A stretch of 37,176 nt of DNA from Scenedesmus sp. PABB004 (GCA_014905635.1 JABVCE010000016.1:806001-843176), one strand, 5' to 3'. Positions 5,103 through 37,176 are shown, numbered from the stretch's first letter. Notes: a model not told the origin generated them from the sequence alone. Program-made: numbers and translations.

Positions 5103-5872
5103 GCCGCCGGCGCCGGCGCGCGCTCGGACCGCGCGTGGGCGGCTGCGGGGCCGTGCGCAAGCCCCCAGCCGCCGCGCTGGCTGCGCGCGGGCAGAGGGAA
5201 AGAACTGGACGCGCGGACCCCCGCCACGCATCCTGGCGGGTTGTGCGGCCCTTGAATGTGTGCAGCAGTGCAGCGGGCGGACTGTCAGGTCGAGCCTGTG
5301 CTGACCTGCTCTCTGTCGGCGTGTGCAGCGAGGGGAACGGAACCGCACCGCGCCTAGGCCTAGGCACGCAGGCAGCTGCGCAGTTGTCAGAGAAACGTCA
5401 CCAGCGGGCGAGGGTGCACTTGCTGTCGGGGCTCTGAAGCAGTCGGGCGGGCAACGCGCGCTGCTGAACCCCCGGGCGCGGCGGCGGCCTCGGGCCGCGA
5501 ACGACTCGGGTTTCACTCAGTCTCACTCAGTTTCACTCCGTGACTCTCTTCCAAGGAGGGCAGGGCCCGGTGAGCTGCAACACGCTGCCGGCGTGGGAGG
5601 GTGGCCAGCGTGGGAGGGTGGCGGCGGCCGGCAGCCGCCCCGGCCCCGCACGGTTGTAACTCAATGCGCCGTGCTGAGATGCGAGCGCCGCCGCGCCGCC
5701 AGGCGTAAGGTGCGCGGGGCGCGTGGGCGCGCCGTGCACGCGTCGGTGGGCGGCAGCAGCAGCGTCCGCAGGCGCTCCTGCCCACGCGGCGCGGGGCGGG
5801 GGCCAAGCCGAGGGAGAGGTGGAGGCGCAGGAGCTCGGTTCAGGGGTGCTTGTCGGCACGCGCCGCCGACGC

Positions 5873-6778
5873 TCAGAGGTGGCCGCGCGGGCCCCAGCCA
5901 GGGTCGGCGGCGGGCTTCCACAGCCAATGGTTGCGGAGGCCCGTGGCGGCGCAGCGGTCACACGCCACGCAGCCACGGCGCCCGCAGGCCGGGCAGGGGC
6001 CCGTGGCCGCGCGCGGCTCGTCTGGCCAGGCAAAGCCCTGCAGCGGCGACAGCGGAAGCAAGCGGGGCGGGCGGGCGCGCGGTCAGTGCCGGCCGGCGCG
6101 GCGGCCGCCGCGCCGGCTGGCGACCCGCCGCGCCGCACCTGCCGGCCGCGGCCCCGGCACGCGGCGCAGACAACGTAGCCGGTACCGCAGCAGGGGCGGC
6201 AGCGCTTGGGCTGCAGCGCAGCCGCGAGCGCGTCCGCCGCGGGGCGCGCCGCGAGCGCCCCGGCTGCTGCGGCCGCCGCCAGCGCGGGCGCGTGCGCGGC
6301 CGTCGCCTCTGCCAGCGCCTCGGCGTCCCGCGGCGCCTGCGGGCGCGCCTGCGCCGGGCCGGCCTGCGCGCAGCGCGCGTGCGGGGGGGGGGGGGGGGGG
6401 TCGGCGCGGCGCGGCACGTGCGTGGGCGTGGGCGCCGGCCTGGCGTCGGTGTCGCGCGCCCTGGGCTCGCGGCGCTGTGCGCTCTGCGCCGCTCTGCCGA
6501 CGCGCAGCAGCTGCCGGCGCCGCCGCCGCCCCGCGCCGAGCGCGCACCGCGAGCGCCGCAGCTCCCGCGAGGGCCAGCATGCCGGTCAGCACGTCCCGCC
6601 TGCGTGGCGCGGGCGGCGGCGTGGTGCGGCGCTGCTCGCCGAGCAGCCGAGCAGCGCGTCTGCGCTCTGCTCCGCCGCACCTCGCGCGCGGCGCCGCCGG
6701 CGGTGCCGCAGCGCGCTCGGAGGTGCTGGGCGCCCCGGCGCAGCGGGCGCCGGCCGCGCCCGGGGCGAGGGGCAGCAT
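5873..6778 (-). CDS. DnaJ-type (CxxCxGxG) zinc-finger protein without J domain, predicted thylakoid-targeted, 4 exons
   Basis: Exons 6778-6681, 6599-6548, 6363-6139, 6037-5873 join in frame. Four Cys repeats CRPCCGTG, CAACRGRG, CPACGRRG, CDRCAATG. N-terminus is a transit peptide, then RRDVL, a hydrophobic stretch and AQA. Confidence 0.8.
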
Positions 6779-6880
6779 GGCGGCCGGCGCGGGGGCGGCG
6801 GCGCGGGCCGCTGCTGCCGCTGGTGCCGCTGCTGCTGGCGCTGCTGCTGCGGGCGGGAGGTGGCGAGCGGACTCTCGGAC
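6330..6880 (-). repeat. Duplicated 5' gene module, copy A (5'UTR, exons 1-2, two introns, start of exon 3)
   Basis: Near-identical to 11771-12255 by eye, apart from substitutions and intron indels. Confidence 0.92.
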
Positions 6881-7115
6881 TGACAGCACTGTCCGCAGGA
6901 AGCCGGAGCAGCGGCGGCGGCGCTTTTGCGCGACGCCGCAGCGCCCAGCGCCGCCGGCGGTCAGCCACGGTTGTCTCCCGGTCGCACTCACTCACACGCC
7001 GCAGCGCCGGGCTCCGCACGCGCCACGACGCGCAACCGCGGCGGCAGCAGCAGCAGCAGCAGCAGCGGAGCGCCCCGCCGCGCGAGCGAGCGAGCGAGCG
7101 AGCGTGTGCTCGGCC

Positions 7116-8700
7116 ATGGAGTGGCTCAGCAGCGTGCGCAAGCAGGCGGCGGCGGCGGTGGACAGCGCGCTGCACAGCGAGGCGGCGGAGCGCGCGCGCG
7201 AGCTGGCGGCGCAGGCGAAGCAGCAGGCGGCCGCGCTCGCCAAGGAGGCGAGCGCCAAGGCGCAGGAGGTGGCCAAGGAGGCGCTGGGCGAGGCAGAGAA
7301 GAGCCTGGCGGGGCTGCGCCAGGTGCGGGCGCGCCGCCCGGTCGCGCGGCAGTGCCGTGGCGCCGCGGCAGCGCCGGCGGCGGCGCGGGGCGAAGCGCGC
7401 GCCCACGTACCGCCGCCGCCACCGCTGGCGGCGCCGCTGCGGCGCGTCCAGGGCCAGGCGGCAGGGCGGGCTGCCGACCCCGGCGCGCTGGGCATCACGC
7501 CCGAGCTGCTGCAGTTTGTGCGCAGCCTGACGTACAGCACGTTCAGGTGGGGGGCGGCGCGCCCCTCCCTCTCTCGCCGCGCGCCCGCGCGCGGCGAGAC
7601 CCGCTAGTCCACTCACGCACGCACGCACGCCCCTTGACCCCTCCTCCCCCCCCCCCCCCCCCGCCCCTGCCCGCCCGGTCAGCGATTACCCGCTCGACTC
7701 CCTCGACCTGCCGCCCGACCCCGCGGCCGCCAAGCTCACGCCCTGGCAGGAGGGCCACGCGCGCGCGGTGCTGGAGCAGGTGCAGCAGCTGCAGGACCTG
7801 CGCTTCGTGCTCTGCCCCAAGTGAGCGCGTCCGCGCCCGCCCGCGCCCCGGCGCCGCCGCCGCCGCCGCCTCCGCCGCCGCCGCCGCCCCGCCCGACGCT
7901 GCCGCGGCGCGCCCACGCGCCCGCCGGCGTCCCCGCCCCTGTGTGCGTTCACACGCGTGCGCGTGCGTGTCAGGGTCATGGACGAGCATGTCTTCTGGCT
8001 CATCTACTTCACCCTCTGCCGCCGCTACCTGCCGGAGCAGGCGCAGGAGCGCGCGCAGCACTGCGCAGGCGCAGGCGCGGCGCCGCAGCAGCCGCCGCAG
8101 CAGCCGCCGCCGCCGCCGCCGCAGCCCGCGCCGCCGCGCGCGCCCAGCATCAGCAGCGTGCGCAGCGCCAGCCCCGCGCCCGCGCCCGCGCCCGCGGCGG
8201 TGCCTGCGGCGGCGGCGGCGGCGGCGGCGGCGACAGCGGCGGCGACGGCGGGGGCGGCGACGGCCGCAACGGCTGCAGCGGCGGCTGGACCTGACGCGTC
8301 CGCCGGGCTGCCGCTGTCGTCGTCTGCGCCCGACCTGGCACGCGAGTCGGGCGGGACCCAGGCGGCAGCGGCAGGCGGCGGCAGCCCTGAGCCGCCCGCT
8401 GCAGAGGCGGGCGCGGCTGCGGGCGGCGCGGGCGCAGACGCCGACGCGGAGTTTGCGGCGCTGGTGGGCGACCCGGACGACCTGGACGCGTACCTCCAGG
8501 TGCGGGGCTGCGGCGCGTGCATGCGCGCAGGCACGCAGCGGCGGGGCTGCCGCGGGGCGCGGCGCGCCGGCGCGCGCGTGCTGACCGCCCGCGCCGCGCC
8601 CTGGCAGAGCGCGCTGCAGCTCAAGGGCGAGGGCGGCGAGTCTGACATCGAGGACCTGGACGAGTACCTCACCCAGCTCGGCGCGGGTGAGCGGGGCTGA
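7116..8700 (+). CDS. BSD domain-containing protein, 5 exons
   Basis: Exons 7116-7322, 7452-7546, 7683-7820, 7974-8499, 8608-8700. Motif LTPWQEGHA..VL..V.QLQDLRFVLCPKVMDEHVFWLIYF is a plant-type BSD domain. Low-complexity, acidic C-terminus. Confidence 0.85.
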
Positions 8701-8855
8701 GCCGGGCTGAGCTGAGCTGAGGCGCGCACGCGCGCGGCGCCGACGCGCTGGGGGAGGCGCGCGCGCCCGACCACGCTGCGGCCGCCGTCGCACCGCAGAG
8801 GCGGGCGGGAAGTGAGCCTGCGCACGCTGCTGGTGCTCTGCTCGCGTGGTGAACC

Positions 8856-8860
8856 TGTAA
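8856..8860 (+). terminator. TGTAA polyadenylation signal of the BSD gene
   Basis: Canonical chlorophyte poly(A) signal about 155 nt downstream of the stop codon. Confidence 0.5.
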
Positions 8861-8882
8861 CACGGCTCCGCGGGTTCAGACC

Positions 8883-10053
8883 TCACGTCAGCCAGCCTGC
8901 CCAGAGCTCCACCACGTCGGCGCTCCCGTACCAGCGGCGCCCTTTTGCCGCGTCGTGAAACACGCCGGGCAGGACCAGCGCCTCAGCGCCCGGCAGCAGC
9001 GCCGTCTCCACGGGGCACACGCCGTCGCCGTCGACGTCGACGCGCCCGCAGTTGGCGACGTAGCTGCTCTGCACAAACAGCCGATTGCCCGCCTCGCTCA
9101 GCGCCAGCCGCCCGCTGAGCACCGCCCGCACGTTGCTCCAGCCGAACGCCTCGCCTGGCGGGCGGGGGCGGCGTTTAGGTGGCAGTCGGGGCGCTGCGAC
9201 GGCGCAAGCTGCGGCGGGGCGCCCGGCCAGCCGCCGCCGCACCTTTGGCTGCCGCACCGGCCACGCACAGCACGCGCACCGGCGCGAGGCTCGCGGCGTC
9301 AGGCAGGTGGTGGTTGGCCCACTGCAGAGAAGTCGTCACGCCCTTCGGCGCGCAGCCCGTCGCCCGGATCCAGCCCTCCTGCGCGCGGCGGCGGGCGTGC
9401 GCCGCTCGCGCCGCGCGCGTGCGCGCGCACGCCCCTCTCTCGTGCCCGCGCCAGCCGGGCCAGCCCGCCGCGCGCCGCGCAGCCCACCTCAGCACGGCCA
9501 AAGGGATAGGCCTCGGCTGACAGGTGCGGACTGCCGCACGTCACGAGCGCGCTCACCGACGGCCCCAGGCCCCACACGCGGCCTGGCGCGGCGCGGCAGG
9601 GGCGCGGGCGTGGGCCGCTCACGCGCCAGCCGGGCGCGGCCCGCGCCGGCTGCCCGCTGCCCGCGCCGCACCCTCGTACGGCACCGCCGCGAGCGCGAGG
9701 CGCGCCAGCCAGCCGCCGGCCGAGATGCCGACCAGCCCCACGGGGCCGCCGTGTGTGTCGGCGAGGCGCGCCACGTGCTCGGCGGTGCGCTCTAGGAACC
9801 AGGCAAAGCTGCCACCTCGCAGCGTGGGGAGCCAGTCGCGCGTGTGCGCTGGCAGCACGTCGACCGCGTGCCCCCGCGCGCGCAGGTTGGCTGCCAGCTC
9901 GCTGTACTGCGACCCCGGTGACGTCGTCGCGTTCGAGAGGAAGCCCGGCAGCACGAGCACCGGGCAGCGCGGCGTGCAGCTGCCAGCGCCGAGCTGCGCG
10001 TGGCAGCGCTGCGGCGGCGCGGGCGCGCGGGCGCCAGCGCTGCACGCTCTCAT
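8883..10053 (-). CDS. Alpha/beta-hydrolase (lipase/PGAP1-like esterase), 4 exons
   Basis: Exons 10053-9672, 9582-9488, 9378-9243, 9154-8883. PVLVLPGF oxyanion motif, nucleophile GISAGG, LVTCGSPH, DGDGVCP (Asp), GVFH (His), WYGS..VV..W. Start codon is uncertain. Confidence 0.85.
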
Positions 10054-10415
10054 GCCCGGCTGCTCCTGCGGCCTGGTTTTTGCCCCAGGGGGCTTGGCTT
10101 TTGCCCCAGAGCGGCTGGTGGATTGCAGTTGGAGTGCTCCTCGCTGCGCTGGCGACGCCGGATTGGGCAGCGGCAGCGCTTGCCGGCAGCGGCAGCGCTT
10201 GCCGGCAGCGGCAGCGGCGCGGCGTGGCGGCCGGGAGCGGGCGTGTGCGGCCGAGATCGCGGGCCAGGCTGCAGTGACGGAGCTCCAGCAGGACTCGTCG
10301 TTGCCCGTGTGCGAGCTGGGCCGGGGTTCCGCTCCGTCTGCTCGTGTCGCCCAATCGCACGACAACCTCACGCGCCCACAAATGCACAGGCACCACACTG
10401 CGCGGACACACGGCA

Positions 10416-11216
10416 ATGATGCCCGTCCGTCCATCACCGCGCGCCGCCAGCGGCTCAGCGGCGCTCGCGCGCTGGCCGCCGGCGCCGGCGGCGCGGCTCG
10501 CAGCCAGCCAGCGGAGGCGCGGTGCTGTCTCGCAGAGGTCCGACCGCGTGCGGCGGCGGGGCCGCTGCGACGCGGCGGCCGCGAGCGCCGGCGCCGGCGG
10601 GCTGCCGAGCGACGGCGGCCGGCCGGCGCAGTCGCAGGCTCCGCAGGTGCAGGAGCAGCAGCAGCAGCAGCCGCAGCCGCAGCCGCAGCCGCAGCCGCAG
10701 CAGCAGCAGCCGCAGCCGCAGCAGCAGCCGCAGCCGCAGCAGCCGCCGGGCGGGCGCCTCGTTGCACTGCGGGCGCGCCTGTTTGGCGGCGGGCGCCTCG
10801 ACCGCGAGAAGCTCGCGCAGTTCGGCGTCGGCGCGTTCTGCGCGTACGGCGTGCTCTCCAACCTCAACGCCGGCGTGCTGATGACCATCAGCTGGCTCAC
10901 CGTCGTGCGGCGCACGGGGCTCACGCCGCTCGAGGGCGGCAACTGGGCCAGCTTTCTAGGCATCTACGCGGGCCTCTACATCACCACCAACCTCCTGCGC
11001 CCCGCGCGCCTTGCACTCGCGGTCGCCGCGGCGCCAGCCTTTAACTGGGGGCTCGCCGCGCTGCAGGCGCGCCTGGGCCTGAGCCGCGGCGCCGCGGTGG
11101 GCGTGATGCTGGTCTGCATCGCGGTCACCTCGCTCGCCGGGATCACGTTGGCAATTGCGCTCGCCGGCGGCTTCCCGAACGGCCTGCCGCCGCTGCCGTT
11201 CCGCGGCGGGCGCTGA
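10416..11216 (+). CDS. Predicted plastid multi-pass membrane protein of unknown function (FAM210/DUF1279-like pattern)
   Basis: Single ORF: Arg/Ala/Ser-rich N-terminus, Q/P tract, then REKLAQFGVGAFCAYG..SN, TGLTPL, NLLRPARLALA and about three hydrophobic helices. Family call is tentative. Confidence 0.7.
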   Translation: MMPVRPSPRAASGSAALARWPPAPAARLAASQRRRGAVSQRSDRVRRRGRCDAAAASAGAGGLPSDGGRPAQSQAPQVQEQQQQQPQPQPQPQPQQQQPQPQQQPQPQQPPGGRLVALRARLFGGGRLDREKLAQFGVGAFCAYGVLSNLNAGVLMTISWLTVVRRTGLTPLEGGNWASFLGIYAGLYITTNLLRPARLALAVAAAPAFNWGLAALQARLGLSRGAAVGVMLVCIAVTSLAGITLAIALAGGFPNGLPPLPFRGGR

Positions 11217-11543
11217 GCGGAGCGGGGAGGCGGCCGCGTCGCGAGGCGGTGGCCGCGGTGTGTGCGCGGCGGCCGCGGTGTGTGCGCGGCGGTCGCGGGT
11301 AACACGCCGCCGGCTGCGGTGGTGGCAATAACACAGCGCCTGCGCCCATGGCAGCTGCAGCTGGCCTCGCACGAGCGCGGCTGGCCCCTCCCCCCTCCCC
11401 CAAGCAGCGCATGCGCGCCGCCCGGCTCCCGCCGCCGCGCCCGGCCTGCGCTGTCCGCGCCTGGCTCGCGCCGCCCGCGCCCGGCTCCCGCCCGGCTCGC
11501 GCCGTGCGCACGCTCGTCTGCTCCGCTGCACGGCCGCCGCGCG

Positions 11544-12153
11544 TCACTTGTTCTTCTCCAGCCAGTCCGCGATCGCCTGCTGCGTCTCCGACTTGATCCC
11601 CCGCGCCGCGCCCGCGGCGGCGCTGCCGGCCTCAAACTCAAAGTAGTCGGCAAAGTTTCGCTTGTAGTAGTCGTCCAGGCGCGCCTTGTCGTACGCCGCC
11701 TTGTTCGCCCGGCTGCGGGCGAGCAGCGCCTGGATGTACGGCGACTCGGCGGCGGGCACCTCCTTGTTCAGCGGCGCCTGTGGGCGCGCCTGCGCCGGGC
11801 CGGCCTGCACGCAGCGCGCGTGCGGGGGGGGGGGGGGGGGGTCGGCACTCTGCGCTCTGCGCCGCTCTGCCGACGCGCAGCAGCTGCCGGCGCCGCCGCC
11901 GCCCCGCGCCGAGCGCGCACCGCGAGCGCCGCAGCTCCCGCGAGGGCCAGCATGCCGGTCAGCACGTCCCGCCTGCGTGGTGCGGGCGGCGGCGTGGTGC
12001 GGCGCGGCCGCCGAGCAGCCGCCGAGCAGCGCGTCTGCGCGCTGCTCCGCCGCACCTCGCGCGCGGCGCCGCCGGCGGAGCCGCAGCGCGCCCGGAGGTG
12101 CTGGGCGCCCCGGCGCAGCGGGCGCCGGCCGCGCCCGGGGCGAGGGGCAGCAT
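11544..12153 (-). CDS. At1g49975-like (PsaN-like) small thylakoid lumen protein, 3 exons
   Basis: Exons 12153-12056, 11972-11921, 11804-11544. Bipartite signal ..RRDVLTGMLALAGAAALAAGPAQA, then mature part YIQALLARSRANKAAYDKARLDDYYKRNFADYFEF...WLEKNK. Lacks the four Cys of true PsaN. Confidence 0.82.
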
Positions 12154-12255
12154 GGCGGCCGGCGCGGGGGCGGCGGCGCGGGCCGCTGCTGCCGCTGCTG
12201 CCGCTGCTGCTGGCGCCGCTGCTGCGGGCGGGAGGTGGCGAGCGGGCTCTCGGAC
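11771..12255 (-). repeat. Duplicated 5' gene module, copy B
   Basis: Matches 6330-6880, with the same splice sites and the same exon sizes (98 and 52 nt). Confidence 0.92.
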
Positions 12256-12527
12256 GTGTGATCACGCTGCGCGCGGCTGCAGACTCGCCGCGCTCGCTGA
12301 GCCCTGGGTCCCGGGGGTTCGATCGATTTTGAACTGGGCGCCCCGCCCGTTGCCGTCGCCCGCACAACGACGCGACCGTCAGCGCTGCCGCTGCTGCCCT
12401 GCGCGCACCGCCGGCTCCCGCAAGCCGCAGGCGCCGCGAGAGCAGCCGCGATTCGCCTGCGCCCGCCCGCCAGCGCCCGCCTGGCGTGGCCCCGCTCCCC
12501 GCGGACCGGCGCTGTGGTGTGGGGGCG

Positions 12528-15270
12528 ATGAACTTCATCAACACCGCGCCCCGCGCGGGCGGGGGCACCGGGACGGGCACGCCCGGCGGGCCGGGCCGCG
12601 CGGGCGCGTTCAGCGAGCTCACCATGTACAAGGAGCGCCCCAGCGGCGAGATCAGCATAGAGGACTTTGAGAAGTACGCGCTGGACAGGCTGCGAGGTGC
12701 GGCGCGGCGGCGCGGCGCGGCGCGCGGGCGGCGCTGCTGCCGCCGCTGCCGACGCCGCCGGGCTGCCCGCGCGCAGTGCTCAAGGCCATCGACGAGGCCA
12801 AGCTGCGCAGCAAGAGCGATGACGCGATCCAGGCGCGGCAGCGCGCAGGCCGTGCAGGGCGGCGGTTGGCGCCGGGCGCGCCGCGGCCCGCGCGGCCCGC
12901 GCGCGGCGGCCCCCGCGCGCGCGCCCACGCGCCGGCCGGCCGGCGCCGCGGCGCCGCAGGCGGAGGTGGAGGCGCTGCTGAGGAAGCACCTCACGGGCTC
13001 GTCGCGCCAGGAGGCGGCGCGCGCGGACCTCGTGAGCCACCACATCCTGCGCCTCGCGTACTGCCGCACCGCGGAGCTGCGCGCGTGGCTGCTCGCGCAG
13101 GAGACGGCGCTGTTCAAGTACCGCTTCAAGGCGCTCGACACCGCCCAGCAGGCGCGCGCCCCACGCGCTGCGGCGCACGCTCGCGCGCTCCGGCGCTCCG
13201 GCGCGCACGCAGCGGCGCGCGGCGCCGGCGGGCTCACCGCGCCAGGCCGGGCGCCGCGCCGTGCCGCGCAGGTTGACTTTTTCGCGAGCTGCGAGCTGCC
13301 GTACGCGGCGATCAGCGAGGACGAGTACGCGGCGCTGGGCAGCGAGCTCGCGATCGTGGCGGTCGCGTGCGGCGAGCGCGAGCGCGGCGCGGCGCTCGCG
13401 GCGGCGGCCAACAGCAGCAAGGCGGGCGGCGGCGGCGCCGCGACGCCGCACGGCGACACCTGGGCGGTGCAGGACAGGTGCGGCGCCGCCGGCCGGCGCG
13501 CCGCGGCGCGGCCGGCACCCGCGGCCGTGCAGGCGCTCACGCCGCCGCCGCCGCCGCCGCCGCGTCCGCCCCGCGCGCGCCCCGCACGCGCCCCGCTCCC
13601 GCAGGGGCGGCGGCGGCGTGCCGCTGTTCTATCGCGTGCCCTTTGCCGCGGTGCCCGACCTCGTGTTCTCGCGCCGCGTGCTGCTGCGGGACGGCCACGC
13701 GTACGTCGGCCAGGACCAGGTGCCTCGCGCGGCGGCGCGGCCAGCTGGGCTGCCCGGCGCCCGACCGGCGCCCGCCCGCGCCCGCCGCAGCGCCCGGCCC
13801 GCGCGCGCCGCCCACGCTGCCGCGCCGCTCCCTCACCACTCCCCCCCCCCGCCGCCGCCGCCACCCCCCAGGTCTACTCGCTCGTGGTCGGCTCCTTCCG
13901 CGCCAGCCTCAGCGCGGCGCTCGTGGAGGCGGCTCGCGAGTGGGGCGCGTTTGCGGGCGCCGAGGCGGACCGCCTCGCGCCGCTCGTCGACAGCCTGCCC
14001 ACCAGGCGCGGCCCGCCGCACGCAGCGCGGCGCGGCCGGCAGCGCCCCGCCGCACGCCGTACGCGGCGCGCGCGGCGCAGCGCTCACGCCGCGCCGTCGC
14101 GCCGCCGCGCCGCAGGGCGGTCGGCGGCGGCGACGGGCGCAAGGTGCCGGTGGGCGAGGTCTCGGCGGCGCAGCTGGCGGGGCTCGTGGCTGGGCGGCAC
14201 TTCCCGCTGTGCATGACGGTGATGTATGAGCGCCTGGCGGCAGAGTCTCACCTCAAGCACTGGGGCCTGCAGCAGTTCACGCTCTTCCTCAAGACCATCG
14301 GCCTGCCGCTCGAGCAGGCGCTGCTCTTCTTCCGCTCACAGTTTGCGCCGCGGTGAGTGCGCGCGACGCGGCCGCCGCGCGGGGAGCGAGCGGCGCGAGG
14401 GGGCGGCCGCGCGCGCGCCGGCGCCCGCGCTCGGCCCGCGCCGCGACGCCGCCGCCGCCGCCGCCCGCGCCTGCCTGCCCGCTGCGCGCCGCGCCTGGCG
14501 CCGCAGCACGTCTGGCGAGAAGTTCAGCCGTGAGTACGCGTACAACATTCGCTACAACTACGGCGTGGAGGGCAAGCGGGAGAGCTGGAACGAGTGGAGC
14601 TGCGTCAAGATCATCAGCCAGGCGCGCGCGGGAGCTGCGGCGGCGGCGGCGGCGGCGGCAGCGGCGCGCGTCGAGGCGCCGCCCATGCGCCGCCGCCGCC
14701 CGCGCGCGCCGCCGCCGCGCGCAGGAGGTCGGCGGCACGTGCAGCGCCGCGGGCGAGTGCAACGGCGGCTGCCCCTACAAGACCTACGACGCGGCGCAGC
14801 TGCGCGCCGCGCTGGCGCGGCTCAACTGCAACGAAAAGTGCGCGCCGCGCTGCGCGCGCGCCGAGCCCGCGGGGCGCGCTCGCGCGCGCGCCAGGCTCCT
14901 CACGCCCCGCCCCGCGCGCGCGCGCGTCCACCTCCGCCCCAGGGTGGCCAAGGAGGTGGTCGAGAAGGCGCGCGGCAAGCACTACCAGCTCGCCTGCGGC
15001 CTCGCGTTCGAGGGCATCACCGGCGCGCCGCAGGACACGGGCATCAACAAGCCCAGCGAGTTCTACGCCGCCAGCATCGACCTCGCCAACCAGCGCGCCG
15101 CCGCGGCCGGCGCGGCGGCGGGCCCGGCGGCCGGCGCGGCCGCGCCCGCCGCGGCGGGGCCGGCGGGGCAGCAGCAGCAGCAGCAGCAGCAGCACGCCGC
15201 GGCGGCGGCGGGGCAGACGCCCGCGACGCCCGGCGGCGCGCCGCGGCCGCTCGCGGGCGTCGCGGGCTGA
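12528..15270 (+). CDS. PRIM2: DNA primase large subunit, 10 exons
   Basis: Exons 12528-12696, 12777-12832, 12960-13151, 13272-13477, 13605-13719, 13872-14005, 14116-14352, 14507-14621, 14725-14837, 14943-15270. Motifs EISIEDFEKYALDRL, SHHILRLAYC, HLKHWG..QF.LFLK.IG, YAYNIRYNYG.EGKR, and four Fe-S Cys (FPLCM, WSC, GCPY, QLAC). Confidence 0.94.
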
Positions 15271-21077: not shown

Positions 21078-23353
21078 CGGCGCCGCGGCGCGGCGATGCC
21101 GTGCGCCGTTTCCCCTGCCCCGCCGCCCCTGCGGAGCGGAGGTGCGCGGCTCCAACAGGCTGCCCGGCCACGGGCTGCGCCGCCGAGGTGCGCCGCCGGC
21201 GGCCGCGCCGCGCCGCGGGCCGCGCGCCGCCCGCGCGCGCGCCGCTCGCCGGCGCCGCGGCGCGGCGATGCCGTGCGCCGTATCCCCTGCCCCGCCGCCC
21301 CGGCGCGGCGAGTCGGTGTGCAGCACTGGAGCAGGCTCGGCGTTATCTGCTTGGTGACCTGCTGCAGGATCAGCTTGTTGTTCACTCTGTGGCAGATTAT
21401 GTGATGGACATCTGGAAGATGCGGGACACCGTCCTTAAGGGGCGCGGGACCAATGGGCGCGAGCCTGTGGTGTAACTATCTTTATCTTTATCCCTGCGGA
21501 GCGGAGGTGCGCGGCTCCAACAGGCTGCCCGGCCACGGGCTGCGCCGCCGAGGTGCGCCGCCGGCGGCCGCGCCGCGCCGCGGGCCGCGCGCCGCCCGCG
21601 CGCGCGCCGCTCGCCGGCGCCGCGGCGCGGCGATGCCGTGCGCCGTATCCCCTGCCCCGTCGGAGCCCGCGGCAGCGGCGGCCGGCGACGCAGCTGCCCG
21701 ACGCCGGGACGATGCCCGGCGGGTGCGACATGATGCAGGTGGACGCAGACGGCGGCGGTGCCCCGCCCCGGCGCGGCGAGTCGGTGTGCAGCACTGGAGC
21801 AGGCTCGGCGTTATCTGCTTGGTGACCTGCTGCAGGATCAGCTTGTTGTTCACTCTGTGGCAGATTATGTGATGGACATCTGGAAGATGCGGGACACCGT
21901 CCTTAAGGGGCGCGGGACCAATGGGCGCGAGCCTGTGGTGTAACTATCTTTATCTTTATCCCTGCGGAGCGGAGGTGCGCGGCTCCAACAGGCTGCCCGG
22001 CCACGGGCTGCGCCGCCGAGGTGCGCCGCCGGCGGCCGCGCCGCGCCGCGGGCCGCGCGCCGCCCGCGCGCGCGCCGCTCGCCGGCGCCGCGGCGCGGCG
22101 ATGCCGTGCGCCGTTTCCCCTGCCCCGCCGCCCTTGCGGAGCGGAGGTGCGCGGCTCCAACAGGCTGCCCGGCCACGTAACAAAAAAAAACAAAACAGGC
22201 TGCCCGGCCACGGGCTGCGCCGCCGAGGTGCGCCGCCGGCGGCCGCGCCGCGCCGCGGGCCGCGCGCCGCCCGCGCGCGCGCCGCTCGCCGGCGCCGCGG
22301 CGCGGCGATGCCGTGCGCCGTTTCCCCTGCCCCGCCGCCCCTGCGGAGCGGAGGTGCGCGGCTCCAACAGGCTGCCCGGCCACGTAACAAAAAAAAAAAA
22401 ACAGGCTGCCCGGCCACGGGCTGCGCCGCCGAGGTGCGCCGCCGGCGGCCGCGCCGCGCCGCGGGCCGCGCGCCGCCCGCGCGCGCGCCGCTCGCCGGCG
22501 CCGCGGCGCGGCGATGCCGTGCGCCGTATCCCCTGCCCCGCCGCCCCGGCGCGGCGAGTCGGTGTGCAGCACTGGAGCAGGCTCGGCGTTATCTGCTTGG
22601 TGACCTGCTGCAGGATCAGCTTGTTGTTCACTCTGTGGCAGATTATGTGATGGACATCTGGAAGATGCGGGACACCGTCCTTAAGGGGCGCGGGACCAAT
22701 GGGCGCGAGCCTGTGGTGTAACTATCTTTATCTTTATCCCTGCGGAGCGGAGGTGCGCGGCTCCAACAGGCTGCCCGGCCACGGGCTGCGCCGCCGAGGT
22801 GCGCCGCCGGCGGCCGCGCCGCGCCGCGGGCCGCGCGCCGCCCGCGCGCGCGCCGCTCGCCGGCGCCGCGGCGCGGCGATGCCGTGCGCCGTTTCCCCTG
22901 CCCCGCCGCCCTTGCGGAGCGGAGGTGCGCGGCTCCAACAGGCTGCCCGGCCACGTAACAAAAAAAAAAAACAGGCTGCCCGGCCACGGGCTGCGCCGCC
23001 GAGGTGCGCCGCCGGCGGCCGCGCCGCGCCGCGGGCCGCGCGCCGCCCGCGCGCGCGCCGCTCGCCGGCGCCGCGGCGCGGCGATGCCGTGCGCCGTATC
23101 CCCTGCCCCGCCGCCCCGGCGCGGCGAGTCGGTGTGCAGCACTGGAGCAGGCTCGGCGTTATCTGCTTGGTGACCTGCTGCAGGATCAGCTTGTTGTTCA
23201 CTCTGTGGCAGATTATGTGATGGACATCTGGAAGATGCGGGACACCGTCCTTAAGGGGCGCGGGACCAATGGGCGCGAGCCTGTGGTGTAACTATCTTTA
23301 TCTTTATCCCTGCGGAGCGGAGGTGCGCGGCTCCAACAGGCTGCCCGGCCACG
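21078..23353. repeat. 172-bp GC-rich satellite, left array
   Basis: Monomer CCCCTGCGGAGCGGAGGTGCGCGGCTCCAACAGGCTGCCCGGCCACGGGCTG...GATGCCGTGCGCCGTTTCCCCTGCCCCGCCG repeated head-to-tail, interrupted by retro-fragments. Confidence 0.95.
21302..23308 (+). mobile_element. Four copies of a 191-bp 3' fragment of a non-LTR retrotransposon with a (TATCTT)n tail
   Basis: Copies at 21302-21492, 21770-21960, 22548-22738, 23118-23308. Each encodes ...VADYVMDIWKMRDTVLKGRGTNGREPVV* and ends TGTAACTATCTTTATCTTTATC. LINE origin (RTE/RTEX-like) is inferred. Confidence 0.6.
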
Positions 23354-28672: not shown

Positions 28673-29407
28673 TTTTTTTTTTTTTTTTTTTTTACAATGG
28701 GTGACCAAACAAGGACCGAGGCCCAGGGGCAGCCCACTGAAAAAAACTCCAACGGGAAGAGCGCAGCAACCCCTCGTGAAAAACCGCGCCCCGGCGCCCC
28801 CCGAGAGGGGGCACACACATCACCCAACGGCACAGCCAGAGGCCAACGCCCAACGGGCGCCCAAGGAGACCAGGTGATGCCCCGCAATCAAAGGGGCAGC
28901 AGCAGATCAGGCCGCACACCCCCCTTCCGGTGCGGCGAGCCGCACCGGGCATCGGCGCAGCGAGGTGCACCGGCTCCAAGCCTCCGCGCAGAGACCACGC
29001 GCAAACGCCATCCACGCTGGCGGCGGCAGGGGCCGGCCTCAGCGGCATCAGCCCCCGCGCCTCGCGACGACACACGCACACACCAGGGGGCAGCAGTTGG
29101 CTTTGCTGCAAAAACCCCTGAGAAAGCCGCGCACCGATGAGAAAGCCGCCCCACCGGGCAGGCAGCACGCCAAGCCGCCGCGCACGGAGCGCGTGCAGCC
29201 GCCAAACACGCCGGCGGCGCCAGGGGCCGGCCCCATCGGCTGCAGCCCCCTTGCCGCGCGACGACAAACACGCAGACACCAGCCCCGCGGCACGGGCGGA
29301 CACCGCCCAACCTTGCACGCTGCAGAAGAGGCGCGACACGCATCCAGCCGGGGTCGCAGCAAGCCCGGCCGCGGACCCCCCCGGCCCCTGCAGCTAGCCG
29401 CCGCGCT

Positions 29408-29438
<31 letters not shown>

Positions 29439-30617
29439 GGGGTCCTGCGCCGCCGGCGGGGCCAGCGCCGGCGCCGCCGGCAGCGCCGGCACGCCCGCTG
29501 CGGTGAGCCGGAACTCCATTGTGAAGCGGCCCCCGTGCTGGCCCGTGCGCGCGATGACCCCCCGGTGGCACCACCGGCGTTCGAAATCTGCCTGAGTGAG
29601 CTCCTTGCCGGAACCCGACAGCCATGAGCGCGGCACGCCCGCCAGCGCGCGCACGTCCATCGCTGCCTTGCGCCAGTCCAGCACGACTGCGTCGCGCACC
29701 GAGTACACAAAGATGCGAATCGCCGCCACAGGCGCGTGCCCGGGCTGGCCGCCGCCGTGCCGCGCGCGCGCGGCGAGCAGGGCGCGCAGCAGCAGCAGGC
29801 GGAGGTGCGTCCAGAGCTGCTGCAGCTCCGGCGCGACGCCCGACCTGGCAAAGTCGTCCGCCAGCATCACCCTGGGCGGGGGCGGCGCGCGCGGGAAGCC
29901 CGGCTGCAGCCGCGCCCAGAGGTGAGCAAACCACTGCAGCACCGCCGCCGCCACGGGGCATCCGCCGAGGACGTGGCCGAGCGTCTTTTTTTTTTTTTTT
30001 TTTTTTTTTTGTTACAATGGGTGACCAAACAAGGACCGAGGCCCAGGGGCAGCCCACTGAAAAAAAACTCGAACGGGAAGAGCGCAGCAACCCCTCGTGA
30101 AAAACCGCGCCCCGGCGCCCCCCGAGAGGGGGCACACACATCACCCAACGGCACAGCCAGAGGCCAACGCCCAACGGGCGCCCAAGGAGACCAGGTGATG
30201 CCCCGCAATCAAAGGGGCAGCAGCAGATCAGGCCGCACACCCCCCTTCCGGTGCGGCGAGCCGCACCGGGCATCGGCGCAGCGAGGTGCACCGGCTCCAA
30301 GCCTCCGCGCAGAGACCACGCGCAAACGCCATCCACGCTGGCGGCGGCAGGGGCCGGCCTCAGCGGCATCAGCCCCCGCGCCTCGCGACGACACACGCAC
30401 ACACCAGGGGGCAGCAGTTGGCTTTGCTGCAAAAACCCCTGAGAAAGCCGCGCACCGATGAGAAAGCCGCCCCACCGGGCAGGCAGCACGCCAAGCCGCC
30501 GCGCACGGAGCGCGTGCAGCCGCCAAACACGCCGGCCGAGCGTCTCCAGCGGCGGCTGCTGCTGCGCGCGGCAGAGCGGGTGCGGGCACGCCAGCTCCGC
30601 CAGCTCCGGCGCCGCGC
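28673..30617 (-). mobile_element. 5'-truncated L1/Zepp-like LINE (copy 1) inside the Copia leader
   Basis: Poly(A) tail (T-run from 28673), 3'UTR and ORF2 C-terminus matching the copy at 33473+. TSD GTCGCAGGATC at 28662-28672 and 30618-30628. Confidence 0.93.
29986..30533 (-). mobile_element. 5'-truncated LINE (copy 2, 3'UTR only) inserted into copy 1
   Basis: T-run from 29986. TSD GGCCGAGCGTC(T) at 29975-29986 and 30534-30545. The host sequence resumes exactly as in the uninterrupted copy near 34770-34855. Confidence 0.93.
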
Positions 30618-31111: not shown

Positions 31112-33472
31112 CCACGGGCTGCGCCGCCGAGGTGCGCCGCCGGCGGCCGCGCCGCGCCGCGGCCGCGCGCCGCCCGCGCGCGCGCCGCTCGCCGGCGCCG
31201 CGGCGCGGCGATGCCGTGCGCCGTTTCCCCTGCCCCGCCGCCCCTGCGGAGCGGAGGTGCGCGGCTCCAACAGGCTGCCCGGCCACGGGCTGCGCCGCCG
31301 AGGTGCGCCGCCGGCGGCCGCGCCGCGCCGCGGGCCGCGCGCCGCCCGCGCGCGCGCCGCTCGCCGGCGCCGCGGCGCGGCGATGCCGTGCGCCGTTTCC
31401 CCTGCCCCGCCGCCCCTGCGGAGCGGAGGTGCGCGGCTCCAACAGGCTGCCCGGCCACGTAACAAAAAAAAAAAAAACAGGCTGCCCGGCCACGGGCTGC
31501 GCCGCCGAGGTGCGCCGCCGGCGGCCGCGCCGCGCCTCGGGCCGCGCGCCGCCCGCGCGCGCGCCGCTCGCCGGCGCCGCGGCGCGGCGATGCCGTGCGC
31601 CGTTTCCCCTGCCCCGCCGCCCCTGCGGAGCGGAGGTGCGCGGCTCCAACAGGCTGCCCGGCCACGTAACAAAAAAAAAAAAAAACAGGCTGCCCGGCCA
31701 CGGGCTGCGCCGCCGAGGTGCGCCGCCGGCGGCCGCGCCGCGCCGCGGGCCGCGCGCCGCCCGCGCGCGCGCCGCTCGCCGGCGCCGCGGCGCGGCGATG
31801 CCGTGCGCCGTTTCCCCTGCCCCGCCGCCCCTGCGGAGCGGAGGTGCGCGGCTCCAACAGGCTGCCCGGCCACGGGCTGCGCCGCCGAGGTGCGCCGCCG
31901 GCGGCCGCGCCGCGCCGCGGGCCGCGCGCCGCCCGCGCGCGCGCCGCTCGCCGGCGCCGCGGCGCGGCGATGCCGTGCGCCGTTTCCCCTGCCCCGCCGC
32001 CCTTGCGGAGCGGAGGTGCGCGGCTCCAACAGGCTGCCCGGCCACGGGCTGCGCCGCCGAGGTGCGCCGCCGGCGGCCGCGCCGCGCCGCGGGCCGCGCG
32101 CCGCCCGCGCGCGCGCCGCTCGCCGGCGCCGCGGCGCGGCGATGCCGTGCGCCGTTTCCCCTGCCCCGCCGCCCCTGCGGAGCGGAGGTGCGCGGCTCCA
32201 ACAGGCTGCCCGGCCACGGGCTGCGCCGCCGAGGTGCGCCGCCGGCGGCCGCGCCGCGCCGCGGGCCGCGCGCCGCCCGCGCGCGCGCCGCTCGCCGGCG
32301 CCGCGGCGCGGCGATGCCGTGCGCCGTTCCCCTGCCCCGCCGCCCCTGCGGAGCGGAGGTGCGCGGCTCCAACAGGCTGCCCGGCCACGTAACAAAAAAA
32401 AATAAAAACAGGCTGCCCGGCCACGGGCTGCGCCGCCGAGGTGCGCCGCCGGCGGCCGCGCCGCGCCGCGGGCCGCGCGCCGCCCGCGCGCGCGCCGCTC
32501 GCCGGCGCCGCGGCGCGGCGATGCCGTGCGCCGTTTCCCCTGCCCCGCCGCCCCTGCGGAGCGGAGGTGCGCGGCTCCAACAGGCTGCCCGGCCACGGGC
32601 TGCGCCGCCGAGGTGCGCCGCCGGCGGCCGCGCCGCGCCGCGGGCCGCGCGCCGCCCGCGCGCGCGCCGCTCGCCGGCGCCGCGGCGCGGCGATGCCGTG
32701 CGCCGTTTCCCCTGCCCCGCCGCCCTTGCGGAGCGGAGGTGCGCGGCTCCAACAGGCTGCCCGGCCACGGGCTGCGCCGCCGAGGTGCGCCGCCGGCGGC
32801 CGCGCCGCGCCGCGGGCCGCGCGCCGCCCGCGCGCGCGCCGCTCGCCGGCGCCGCGGCGCGGCGATGCCGTGCGCCGTTTCCCCTGCCCCGCCGCCCCTG
32901 CGGAGCGGAGGTGCGCGGCTCCAACAGGCTGCCCGGCCACGGGCTGCGCCGCCGAGGTGCGCCGCCGGCGGCCGCGCCGCGCCGCGGGCCGCGCGCCGCC
33001 CGCGCGCGCGCCGCTCGCCGGCGCCGCGGCGCGGCGATGCCGTGCGCCGTTCCCCTGCCCCGCCGCCCCTGCGGAGCGGAGGTGCGCGGCTCCAACAGGC
33101 TGCCCGGCCACGTAACAAAAAAAAAATAAAAACAGGCTGCCCGGCCGCGCTGCGCCGCCGAGGTGCGCCGCCGGCGGCCGCGCGCGCGCCGCGGGCGCGC
33201 GCCGCGCGCCCGCGCGCGCGCGCGCGCCGGCGCCGCGGCGCGGCGATGCCGTGCGCCGTTTCCCCTGCCCCGCCGCCCCTGCGGAGCGGAGGTGCGCGGC
33301 TCCAACAGGCTGCCCGGCCACGGGCTGCGCCGCCGAGGTGCGCCGCCGGCGGCCGCGCCGCGCCGCGGGCCGCGCGCCGCCCGCGCGCGCGCCGCTCGCC
33401 GGCGCCGCGGCGCGGCGATGCCGTGCGCCGTTTCCCCTGCCCCGCCGCCCCTGCGGAGCGGAGGTGCGCGGC
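31112..33472. repeat. 172-bp satellite, right array (about 13 monomers) with a 723-bp higher-order repeat
   Basis: Period 172 (e.g. 31241 to 31413, 31828 to 32000). Variant pattern recurs at a 723-bp offset. Confidence 0.95.
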
Positions 33473-34205
33473 TTTTTTTTTTTTTTTTTGTTACAATGGG
33501 TGACCAAACAAGGACCGAGGCCCAGGGGCAGCCCACTGAAAAAAACTCCAACGGGAAGAGCGCAGCAACCCCTCGTGAAAAACCGCGCCCCGGCGCCCCC
33601 CGAGAGGGGGCACACACATCACCCAACGGCACAGCCAGAGGCCAACGCCCAACGGGCGCCCAAGGAGACCAGGTGATGCCCCGCAATCAAAGGGGCAGCA
33701 GCAGATCAGGCCGCACACCCCCCTTCCGGTGCGGCGAGCCGCACCGGGCATCGGCGCAGCGAGGTGCACCGGCTCCAAGCCTCCGCGCAGAGACCACGCG
33801 CAAACGCCATCCACGCTGGCGGCGGCAGGGGCCGGCCTCAGCGGCATCAGCCCCCGCGCCTCGCGACGACACACGCACACACCAGGGGGCAGCAGTTGGC
33901 TTTGCTGCAAAAACCCCTGAGAAAGCCGCGCACCGATGAGAAAGCCGCCCCACCGGGCAGGCAGCACGCCAAGCCGCCGCGCACGGAGCGCGTGCAGCCG
34001 CCAAACACGCCGGCGGCGCCAGGGGCCGGCCCCATCGGCTGCAGCCCCCTTGCCGCGCGACGACAAACACGCAGACACCAGCCCCGCGGCACGGGCGGAC
34101 ACCGCCCAACCTTGCACGCTGCAGAAGAGGCGCGACACGCATCCAGCCGGGGTCGCAGCAAGCCCGGCCGCGGACCCCCCGGCCCCTGCAGCTAGCCGCC
34201 GCGCT

Positions 34206-34236
<31 letters not shown>

Positions 34237-37176
34237 GGGGTCCTGCGCCGCCGGCGGGGCCAGCGCCGGCGCCGCCGGCAGCGCCGGCACGCCCGCTGCG
34301 GTGAGCCGGAACTCCATTGTGAAGCGGCCCCCGTGCTGGCCCGTGCGCGCGATGACCCCTCGGTGGCACCACCGGCGTTCGAAATCTGCCTGAGTGAGCT
34401 CCTTGCCGGAGCCCGACAGCCAGGAGCGCGGCACGCCCGCCAGCGCGCGCACGTCCATCGCTGCCTTGCGCCAGTCCAGCATGACTGCGTCGCGCACCGA
34501 GTACACAAAGATGCGAACCGCCGCCACAGGCGCGTGCCCGGGCTGGCCGCCGCCGTGCCGCGCGCGCGCGGCGAGCAGGGCGCGCAGCAGCAGCAGGCGG
34601 AGGTGCGTCCAGAGCTGCTGCAGCTCCGGCGCGACGCCCGACCTGGCAAAGTCGTCCGCCAGCATCACCCTGGGCGGGGGGCGCGCGCGGGAAGCCCGGC
34701 TGCAGCCGCGCCCAGAGGTGAGCAAACCACTGCAGCACCGCCGCCGCCACGGGGCATCCGCCGAGGACGTGGCCGAGCGTCTCCAGCGGCGGCTGCTGCT
34801 GCGCGCGGCAGAGCGGGTGCGGGCACGCCAGCTCCGCCAGCTCCGGCGCCGCGCGCTGGTAAGAGAAGACCCTGTCGCCGCTGACGCGCACCCCGCCGTG
34901 CAGCAGGCTCCAGCCAAAGTGTCGCAGGGCGCGCGGCATGCGCGCCTGCTGCGCGCGCGCGTAGCAGGCGGCCCAGGCGGGCGGCTCCGCGCGCTCGCCG
35001 GCGCGCGGCGGCGCAGTCGCACCAGTGAGCGGGTCGACGAGGTCGTTGGCCGCCGGCTCCTGAACCAGGGTCCTGCGCTGCTCCAGCTGCTGCTCCCGCC
35101 GCTGCTCATGCTCCTCGCGCCGCGCCGCGGCGGCAGCGGCCGCCGCCGGCCCGACGCGCTCCATGACGTGGCGCCGCGGGGGCGAGACTTTCTGCCACGC
35201 CGGCAGCCCAGGCTCCGGGTCTGGCGTCTCGGCTCGCTGCCGCTCCGCCCAGCTGCGCTTCTGGCCCGCCTCCCGCCGCGCGATGGCGCTGGCCGGGCAT
35301 GCCTGGCCGTAGCCGGCGCGCCAGAGGCCCGGCACGCAGCCAACGCCGGGCGTCCAGCCCCCTGCCGGCGTGACCTCGCGCGCGCAGCGCAGCTGCAGCA
35401 GCCGCAGGGTCGCGCCGCGCACCGTAAACTGCATGACCGTGGCCGCGTGCCCGAGCCCCCACACGGAGGGGTCGACGCGGACGTCAGGCCAGAAGCCCAC
35501 GAGGAACCATCGCCGCGCCCTGCTGTGCAGCTCCGGCTGCTCCGCCGGCGCCGCTGCCCCGGGCGCTCCGGCCGCCGCGCGCTGCGCGCCCGCCGCTGGC
35601 CGCGGCGCCTGCGCCGCGTCCACCACGCAGCAGTCCTCCCACCCCCCGCCGCGACTATCTCGGGCGGGGGCTCGGCGGTGCGGAGCCTGCTGTCAGGCCC
35701 CACCTCGAAGAAGCTCGCCGCTGCCGCGCCCAGCGCCCACCGCCGTACCCACCGCACGGCGGGCGGCGGCGGCGGCGGCTGCGGCGGCTGCTCCACCGGC
35801 AGCGCCGCCAGCGGCTGCTGGGGCTGCTGCACCACGCCGCCGCCCGGCGACGGCGGCGCCGCGCTGGGCCGCAGCGCCTGCCAACCCGGCGCGCTCGGCC
35901 CGCTGCGCGCGAGCGCCTGCTGCCACTCACCCGGCATGACGACGCCGTCGGCGGCCGGCCGCCACGGCAGGCGCGGCGCCGCCTGCCCGAGGCTGTCGCT
36001 GCGCAGCTCCGCGGGCAGGTCCTCGAGCGACGCGATGCGCGCGCCGCCCAGGGCCGCGCCGACGCTGCAGTTGCCCACCAGGGCCTCCACCCTGATCTGC
36101 TCCACGGTCATGCTGCCGTGGGGGATCACCCGGTGCACGCCGAGAGCCGCAAACGCGCAGGCGATCGCGCCCCACCGCCACGGCAGCTGCGCCCGCAGCT
36201 CCAGCGCGGTGCCCTGCACGAGGGCGGCGGTGCCCCGGCCAGGCAGCGCGCGCGCGAAGCGCGCCGCCGCGGGTGGCTTCCAGGCCGCCCCCACCGGGTG
36301 CAGCAGCCTGGCGGCCGTCTTGGCCAGCATTGCCGTGGTGAAGGCCGCGACGTCGACCTGCGCCTCGCCGCCCATGCTCGCGGGCAGGCACGCGATGGCC
36401 GCCCGCGGAACCTGCCTGATAATGCGGTTGTCGCTCTCGCGGATGCACCAGTTGCCGACGATGTAGGCGGTGACGCGCCGCTGGATGAGGCGCAGGAGGT
36501 CGGCCGGCACCGGCACAAACTGCGCGTGCCAGCCCACGCAGGCCGCGAGCACCTGGCGCGCAACGTGCCGGCGGCCCGGGCGCGTGAGCGCGTACCGCGA
36601 CCAGTGCGCGATGCGGCAGGTGATGGTGCGCAGCCGCTCGCGGTAAAGCTGCGCCGCGTGCCGCCCGACGCCGGTGGCAGAGAGCAGCACGCCCAGGTGC
36701 CTGATCGGCGCCTGCTCTGTGTCCGGGAAGCACACGCCCGTGCTGCACTCGACCAGCTGCCCGCTGCCATCCGGCTGCAGCTGCAGCGCCGGGTGGTCGC
36801 CCAGCAGCATGCCCTTGCACTTGGCCAGGTTGAGCTGCGCGCCGCTGGCCAGGCAGAACGGCGCGACGGCGCCGTCCAGCAGCCGCTTGGCGCTCTCCAG
36901 TGACGCTGCGTGCAGGGTGGTGTCGTCTGCGTGCTGGTGGCAGCAGGGCGCGGCCCTGCGCCGCCGGGCAGCTGCAGGCTGGCAAAACCGGGCTGCCGCT
37001 GCACGCGCCGGCACATGGCCGCCAGCGGCTGCGCCGCCAGCACATACAGCAGCGGGCTGAGCGGGCTGCCCTGCGCGCAGCCCGACGCACGCTGAACTCG
37101 CGGCTGACATGGCCGCCGTTGAAGGCGACGCGCGCGCCGCGTGCCTGCGAGCAGCAGGCGGACCCAGCGCGTGGTT
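33473..37176 (-). mobile_element. L1-clade (Zepp-like) LINE, copy 3, extends beyond the window
   Basis: Poly(A) after CCATTGTAAC, about 700-nt 3'UTR, ORF2 remnant. Inserted in the satellite at GCGCGGC^TCCAAC. Confidence 0.93.
34192..37176 (-). pseudogene. LINE ORF2 (RT C-terminal part and Cys/His zinc motif), frameshifted
   Basis: QGSPLSPLLYVLAAQPL, HQHADDTT, ASGAQLNLAKC, IRHLGV, CPHPLC...ETLGHVLGGC, FERRWCHRGV are spread over several frames (shifts near 36960, 35640, 34680). Could be decay or consensus error. Confidence 0.85.

Follow-up and report, generated by a model that had tools for sequence, protein, structure and literature searches.

Organisation of the locus

The analyzed stretch of DNA (hereafter, the window) comprises 37176 nucleotides (nt) from Scenedesmus sp. 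PABB004 (GCA_014905635.1, JABVCE010000016.1:806001-843176), with 76.8% G+C and without N. Between positions 5873 and 12255 its minus strand carries two genes, referred to here as A and B, that share a duplicated 5' module while the remainders of the two genes are unrelated. Gene B encodes a small protein of 136 amino acids (aa) with the features of a thylakoid lumen precursor, and gene A is predicted to encode a zinc (Zn) finger protein of 179 aa preceded by the same N-terminal signal (Table 1).

Direct-repeat search, MAFFT alignment and BLAST agreed in identifying 6331-6880 and 11772-12255 as two copies of one segment, arranged in direct orientation approximately 5.4 kilobases (kb) apart and accounted for by one colinear duplication. 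Of the 481 aligned bases 471 were identical (10 mismatches, 2.1%), an identity far beyond chance since random 15-mers from the window agreed on average at only 4.8 of 15 positions. A preliminary description of this DNA had reported the near-identity with limits at 6330 and 11771, and had listed as the contents of the module about 100 nt of upstream sequence, exon 1 (98 nt), exon 2 (52 nt) and the first 11 codons of exon 3; both statements were reproduced when the copies were aligned, the 5'-most and 3'-most shared positions being those given above. The encoded peptide of 61 residues is identical at 60 of them, the single E/G difference mentioned in the same description being located at residue 21 (E in A, G in B), and the similarity ends, also as described, five codons past the AQA site. 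No third copy was found by BLAST of the module against the window. A C-rich run resembling the C18 run of intron 2 is also present at 7640-7664, in an intron of a plus-strand gene.

Table 1. Positions and properties of the features of genes A and B, of the shared module and of its flanks. Slashes within sequences mark exon-intron borders.
Feature	Gene or copy A	Gene or copy B	Strand	Details
Gene A coding sequence (model), 179 aa	5873..6778; exons 6778-6681, 6599-6548, 6363-6139, 6037-5873 (stop included)		-	canonical GT..AG introns
Zn-finger first half, CRPCCGTGYVVCAACRGRG	6145..6201 (exon 3)		-	two canonical CxxCxGxG units, 3-residue spacer
Zn-finger second half, CPACGRRGCVACDRCAATG	5939..5995 (exon 4)		-	same spacing, CxxCxxxG form
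Intron 3 of gene A, 101 nt	6038..6138		-	CAG/GTGCGG ... CGCTGCAG/GG; unites the Zn-finger halves in frame
Gene B coding sequence, 136 aa		11544..12153; exons 12153-12056, 11972-11921, 11804-11544 (stop included)	-	spliced model
Module copy A	6331..6880		-	parts as in copy B; intron 1, 81 nt; intron 2, 184 nt
Module copy B		11772..12255	-	102 nt upstream of ATG, exon 1, intron 1 (83 nt), exon 2, intron 2 (116 nt), 33 nt of exon 3
Direct repeat	6642-6880	12017-12255		97% identity
Direct repeat	6470-6635	11843-12008		98% identity
Direct repeat	6315-6405	11756-11846		91% identity across the whole span, core identical
Upstream leader				3/102 mismatches, no indels
Exon 1				2/98 mismatches, no indels
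Intron 1				3/80 mismatches, 4 gapped nt
Exon 2				0/52 mismatches, no indels
Intron 2				1/116 mismatches, 68-nt indel, copy A longer
Exon 3, first 33 nt				1/33 mismatches, no indels
A-only stretch within intron 2	6406..6469		-	net length difference between copies 68 nt
C18 run in intron 2 (G18 on plus strand)	6383..6400	11824-11841	-	equal length in both copies
Unshared spacer	6881..7115			copy A to ATG 7116 (+) of divergent neighbour; no usable minus-strand ATG
Unshared spacer		12256..12527		copy B to ATG 12528 (+) of DNA primase large-subunit gene

The shared signal and the family of gene B

The spliced translation of gene B is identical, letter for letter, to the public "hypothetical protein HT031_004805" of Scenedesmus sp. 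PABB004, encoded on a contig of 843 kb; the identity gives independent support to the splice model of the module. All introns of both genes are of the GT..AG type and follow the local consensus G/GTGCGG ... GCAG/G. When the gene B protein was searched with HMMER against 1.84 billion representative sequences, 185 matches were obtained at E <= 1e-3 and 48 at E <= 1e-10, including Chlamydomonas CHLRE_02g086100v5 (E 7.2e-23), Gonium pectorale (E 1.3e-20), Chlamydomonas incerta, transcripts of Flechtneria rotunda and one conifer protein. These homologies place gene B in a Viridiplantae-wide family of small proteins of the Cre02.g086100 type; no paper mentioning Cre02.g086100 was found in the literature search.

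The common peptide had been interpreted as a bipartite signal, formed by a chloroplast transit peptide and a twin-arginine lumen signal, and the features expected of the lumen signal are present. A twin arginine (R33-R34) occurs in both copies, followed by an h-region of 18 aa (VLTGMLALAGAAALAAGP; mean Kyte-Doolittle value 1.69) and by AQA at residues 54-56. The first 32 residues of B include 25 A/S/T/P/G, three K/R and no D/E, and are presumed to act as a stroma-targeting transit peptide ahead of the twin arginine. The features of the lumen signal recur in nearly all of the family: at the column of R33-R34, RR was found in 21 of 26 aligned members (QR in two, KR and RK in one each, and one incomplete), and it is followed by a hydrophobic stretch, a small-x-small site aligned in most members and a conserved mature start, NKEVD..SP.IQ.LL. 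In a cruder count, 152 matches were examined, of which 26 lacked the core motif and 46 were short at the N-terminus; among the 80 full-length matches left, 65 had RR within the 63 residues preceding the mature core.

The reading of gene B as PsaN-like was upheld together with that of gene A as a DnaJ-type Zn finger, with the qualification that the similarity to PsaN is below threshold. Exon 3 of gene B scored 14.8 bits against Pfam PsaN (PF05479; gathering score 21), the full-length protein matched no Pfam family at E <= 0.1, and weak PsaN matches at E <= 0.1 were obtained for six of 26 relatives (best E 3.2e-4). In the AlphaFold model of B (predicted local distance difference test score, pLDDT, 79.5), a helix at residues 32-50 covers the hydrophobic part of the signal and the mature part, which lacks Cys, forms a helical hairpin, for which no fold match was found in the PDB (lowest E 4.9 in Foldseek; highest Z 5.3 in VIA-align, to generic helical chains).

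Gene A and its predicted zinc finger

The model of gene A contains no internal stop and 11 Cys, and consists, in this order, of the module, an Ala-rich linker of approximately 43 residues and a four-CxxC Zn finger. In the six frames of the window, the pattern C..C.G.G...C..C.G.G matched only once, in exon 3 of gene A, and the looser pattern C..C...G...C..C...G only twice, in exons 3 and 4 of the same gene. On these motifs, gene A is predicted to encode a DnaJ/BSD2-type four-CxxC finger in which the canonical glycines of the second half have been lost. Minus-strand ATG codons between 7118 and 6139 are present only at 7117 (inside the start codon of the neighbouring gene), 6778 (the start of the module) and 6580 (Met40, in exon 2); because there is no other usable start codon, the Zn finger could be translated solely from the borrowed 5' end.

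Searches with the exon peptides of gene A, each holding half of the domain, returned few signals. Pfam assigned no family to the exon 4 peptide and no BSD2_CRD match to either peptide, and a PDB sequence search gave nothing significant (best E 0.17, EMB2737, at the level of the motif). An Atlas feature search with exon 4 listed clusters in which BSD2_CRD occurs on 13-50% of the members, at scores (0.76-0.80) too low to be more than leads, and a scan of metagenome contigs with exon 4 retrieved only two matches of 10-11 residues, which are not relatives. The codon-position G+C of the exons proper to gene A is compatible with coding and not discriminating, as one intron frame reaches 96.7%.

Polarity and limits of the duplication

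In order to identify donor and recipient, the preliminary description had proposed a comparison of orthologous N-termini, which was run for the orthologues of B. Across the junction (slash, after the cleavage site), Flechtneria rotunda orthologues read ...RRTMLWSTTAGVTAWVTLNQAAQA/RQEPLNKEVDAAESPYIQ, i.e. RRTMLW..NQAAQA/RQEPLNKEV, and a JGI relative of B reads ...SQSQA/RQEPINKEV. Gene B itself reads ...AGPAQA/RPQAPLNKEVPAAESPYIQ, starting RPQAPLNKEV, and gene A reads AQA/RPQAP followed by RDAEALAEA..., which is unlike anything in the gene B family. Since the orthologues of B carry the same RR...AQA/R(Q)EPLNKEV junction, the signal is native to B, together with its cleavage site and the next five residues. 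Judging from these N-termini, gene B is the donor of the module and gene A its recipient.

The shared segment includes introns and a non-coding leader, as in DNA-mediated partial duplication, and the event was thus DNA-based; the claim that two unrelated genes acquired a common 5' end through local duplication at the DNA level is supported by the copied introns. The 3' break falls within exon 3, and the reading frame is kept across it. Beyond the limits of the module, identity is at background, save for the 30 nt just past the 3' limit (6301-6330 vs. 11742-11771), where 17 of 30 positions agree, a value reached by 1.0% of 6600 controls consisting of in-frame comparisons between the own coding DNA of A and B. 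This agreement may reflect junction microhomology or the trace of an older and wider homology outside a conversion tract, and is a hint only.

Probable origin and possible fate of gene A

A recent intrachromosomal duplication of the 5' end of gene B, resulting in a chimeric gene A, is the best explanation overall and is regarded as probable; the duplication from B to A, considered by itself, is highly probable. Under this explanation, the 5'-terminal ~485 base pairs of gene B were copied recently, at the DNA level and in the same orientation, to a site 5.4 kb away. The copied piece begins in the leader, ~100 nt before the ATG, takes in exons 1 and 2 with their introns and stops 33 nt into exon 3. 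Where it was inserted, it now heads an open reading frame (ORF) for a DnaJ-type zinc finger that is otherwise unrelated to B. The resulting chimeric ORF, 179 aa long and in frame, owes to B its only available start codon, its presumed transit peptide, the RR signal with its hydrophobic stretch of 18 residues, the AQA site and five further residues. If transcribed, the precursor of A would be imported into the chloroplast, exported by the chloroplast twin-arginine translocation (cpTat) pathway and cleaved after AQA, and the lumen would gain a Zn-finger protein of approximately 123 residues starting with RPQAP. Given the duplication, the prospects that gene A is expressed and its product delivered to the lumen appear evenly balanced.

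Several observations weigh against a functional gene A. An open frame is weak evidence at 77% G+C, and an in-frame junction has a one-in-three chance. Canonical glycines are missing from the second half of the finger, and the match to Pfam zf-AtTam37 is below threshold (E 0.0016; 19.6 bits vs. a cut-off of 27). The peptide of exon 3 had no match at E <= 0.01 among 8000 scored candidates (proteins of 133-2000 aa), that of exon 4 yielded three candidates and no match (proteins of 96-2000 aa), and no second module-bearing protein turned up when the 1.84 billion representatives were searched with B; from these searches, gene A seems to be either annotated otherwise than modelled here or absent from public protein sets. 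The G+C content at third codon positions (GC3) of its own exons is 89-91%, below that of gene B (94.7%) and of the neighbouring gene at 7116 (98.5%), and the sole amino acid change in its copy of the module introduces a Glu in the transit-peptide part. It is possible, if on balance doubtful, that the duplication is real and gene A dead. The copy of the 5' end of B would then have replaced or pushed aside the true 5' end of a gene for a Zn finger, or settled next to the relic of one, and the apparent chimera would be either silent or without function. The degenerate second half-finger, the weaker codon-position G+C signal, the Glu-for-Gly change and the lack of a homologue or annotation among the proteins searched all fit such an outcome, and even a dead ORF would not yet have been interrupted at 2% divergence and 77% G+C. 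Against it stand the in-frame junction, the canonical sites of all three introns, the exact spacing of the four CxxC units across intron 3 and the position of gene A, which takes up a space about the size of a gene between two plus-strand genes. A young chimera that never functioned accounts for the observations almost as well as a working gene would, and an open frame at 77% G+C, a one-in-three chance of being in frame and a divergence of 2% do not discriminate between the two.

The youth of the event and the reality of both copies were also weighed. An older acquisition, with ongoing ectopic gene conversion keeping 0.5 kb near-identical and leaving the 2% divergence without value as a date, is very unlikely: the proximity (5.4 kb) and direct orientation of the copies and the identical length of their C18 runs would suit conversion, and the 17/30 agreement past the 3' limit could be old, diverged homology outside the tract, but that figure is post hoc and equally explained by junction microhomology, no similarity is found farther on or past the 5' limit, and two indels persist within the tract. 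That one copy is an artefact of assembly or polishing, and absent from the organism, is scarcely credible. The window does contain other near-identical repeats, and long homopolymers are error-prone; however, both copies lie within one contig with unique sequence on either side, differ by 10 substitutions and three indels, and continue in frame into exons that are not the same for A and B, and collapse or duplication errors seldom yield an internal copy of 0.5 kb with two clean junctions. The substitutions, indels and unique flanks thus speak against an assembly duplicate, in line with the preliminary description.

A more far-reaching version of the duplication hypothesis would have a formerly stromal BSD2-like zinc-finger chaperone re-routed to the thylakoid lumen in one step by the targeting cassette of its neighbour. 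The cpTat pathway exports folded proteins, and in such a scenario it would deliver the Zn-loaded finger intact, as Tat exports folded, cofactor-loaded proteins; the Ala-rich stretch ALAAAAAAGALAARPAADA... before the first CxxC would then be a remnant of the old transit peptide of A. This scenario is unlikely and not supported, because no orthologue of A was found among the proteins searched and lumenal DnaJ-like Zn-finger proteins (PSA2) already exist. If true, it would represent a natural and datable sub-organellar relocation through a single duplication.

Flanking sequences and other features of the window

Gene A is arranged head-to-head with an intron-containing plus-strand gene starting at 7116, and gene B with a DNA primase large-subunit gene (12528-14356, plus strand; Pfam DNA_primase_lrg, E 2.3e-16), the start codons of the latter pair being 374 nt apart. 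The common upstream part is limited to 102 nt; farther from the ATG, the two spacers, with another 236 nt in A and 272 nt in B, are unrelated. Co-regulation of the two genes, which had been suggested in addition to the shared signal, is therefore not implied by the sequence, and their divergent neighbours also differ.

Three genes lie between the module copies, and Pfam searches with their stop-to-stop ORFs gave nothing useful. A single-exon ORF at 10416-11216 (plus strand) has a long Q/P-rich (CAG/CCG) run at 10650-10750 and hydrophobic segments after it, an arrangement resembling that of small membrane proteins of organelles; its only Pfam match was weak and of low complexity (TFIIA, E 0.0058). 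A TGTAA on the plus strand at 5655 corresponds to a convergent neighbour on the left of gene A. No minus-strand TGTAA poly(A) signal was found after A or B, which is uninformative, and a scan for bacterial promoters and terminators returned 0 sites, its models not being applicable to a eukaryote.

A search for sequencing runs containing the window listed one, a freshwater metagenome apparently of DNA, and no RNA run. Aligned to the window at 80% likeness, this metagenome provided nothing that bridged either copy or either junction, 393 of 558 records being less than 90% alike and mostly low-complexity noise. In the same run (share 0.05), two contigs of 151 nt were identical to the window at 10229-10585, which may indicate that this alga or a close relative of it was present in that metagenome at very low depth.

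Elsewhere in the window, 31112-33473 is a tandem array of approximately 13 copies of a 172-nt unit, with higher-order periods of 207-210 nt and ~380 nt, and blocks related to it occur at 21763-23353. Two segments of 1.3 kb (28674-29986 and 33473-34782) are 99.3% identical. The part of the contig that bears the array and the 1.3-kb pair is duplication-prone.

Significance and comparison with known systems

The gain or change of organelle-sorting signals by nuclear genes has mostly been inferred from old and eroded events. In the present case the two breakpoints can still be read, as can the introns and the identity of donor and recipient, with the polarity fixed by orthologues. The unit that moved is an entire two-step address, comprising chloroplast import, Tat export and the processing site. 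If the chimera were expressed, it would show, as an experiment of nature, whether a Tat signal taken from another gene suffices to relocate a metal-binding protein, and it would provide a ready-made native lumen-targeting cassette for algal engineering; if not, it would be a young partial duplicate only, and would recall how often chimeras of this kind are stillborn. The literature search found no paper linking thylakoid lumen, twin-arginine signal and exon shuffling, and, for chimeric genes derived from partial duplication of targeting peptides in green algae, nothing relevant among the papers listed.

PsaN proper (At5g64040) is among the Tat substrates in Table 1 of PMC3813922, and At1g49975 is named "PsaN" in the accession list of PMC13354564. 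A Tat-type signal is common to PsaN (PF05479) and to the gene B family, but gene B falls below the gathering score, and its mature part is a plain helical hairpin without Cys and without a match in the PDB. As for gene A, BSD2-type Cys-rich proteins (BSD2_CRD) likewise have four CxxC units in two pairs with 3-residue spacers, whereas the exon peptides of gene A lack a Pfam BSD2_CRD match and reach Atlas scores of only 0.76-0.80. PSA2 of maize and Arabidopsis, reported in PMC4806229 and PMC7662858 as a DnaJ-like zinc-finger protein of the thylakoid lumen, is likewise a small protein of the chloroplast whose Cys-rich Zn finger is of the DnaJ type; the signal of gene A differs in being borrowed from another gene, and the likeness drawn here is one of finger type.

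The gain of organelle presequences by exon shuffling or presequence duplication, e.g. in plant cytochrome c1 (Long et al. 1996), is recounted in PMC7456531. Such gain of targeting peptides is established, and the A/B case is an unusually fresh instance of it. In such cases, as presented there, a targeting peptide on separate 5' exons is likewise copied from one nuclear gene to an unrelated one. The A/B event differs in being very young, with introns and leader ~98% identical, and in that donor and recipient are neighbours, only 5.4 kb apart; its unit, moreover, is a complete bipartite signal with its cleavage site, and the 3' break lies inside exon 3 instead of in an intron.

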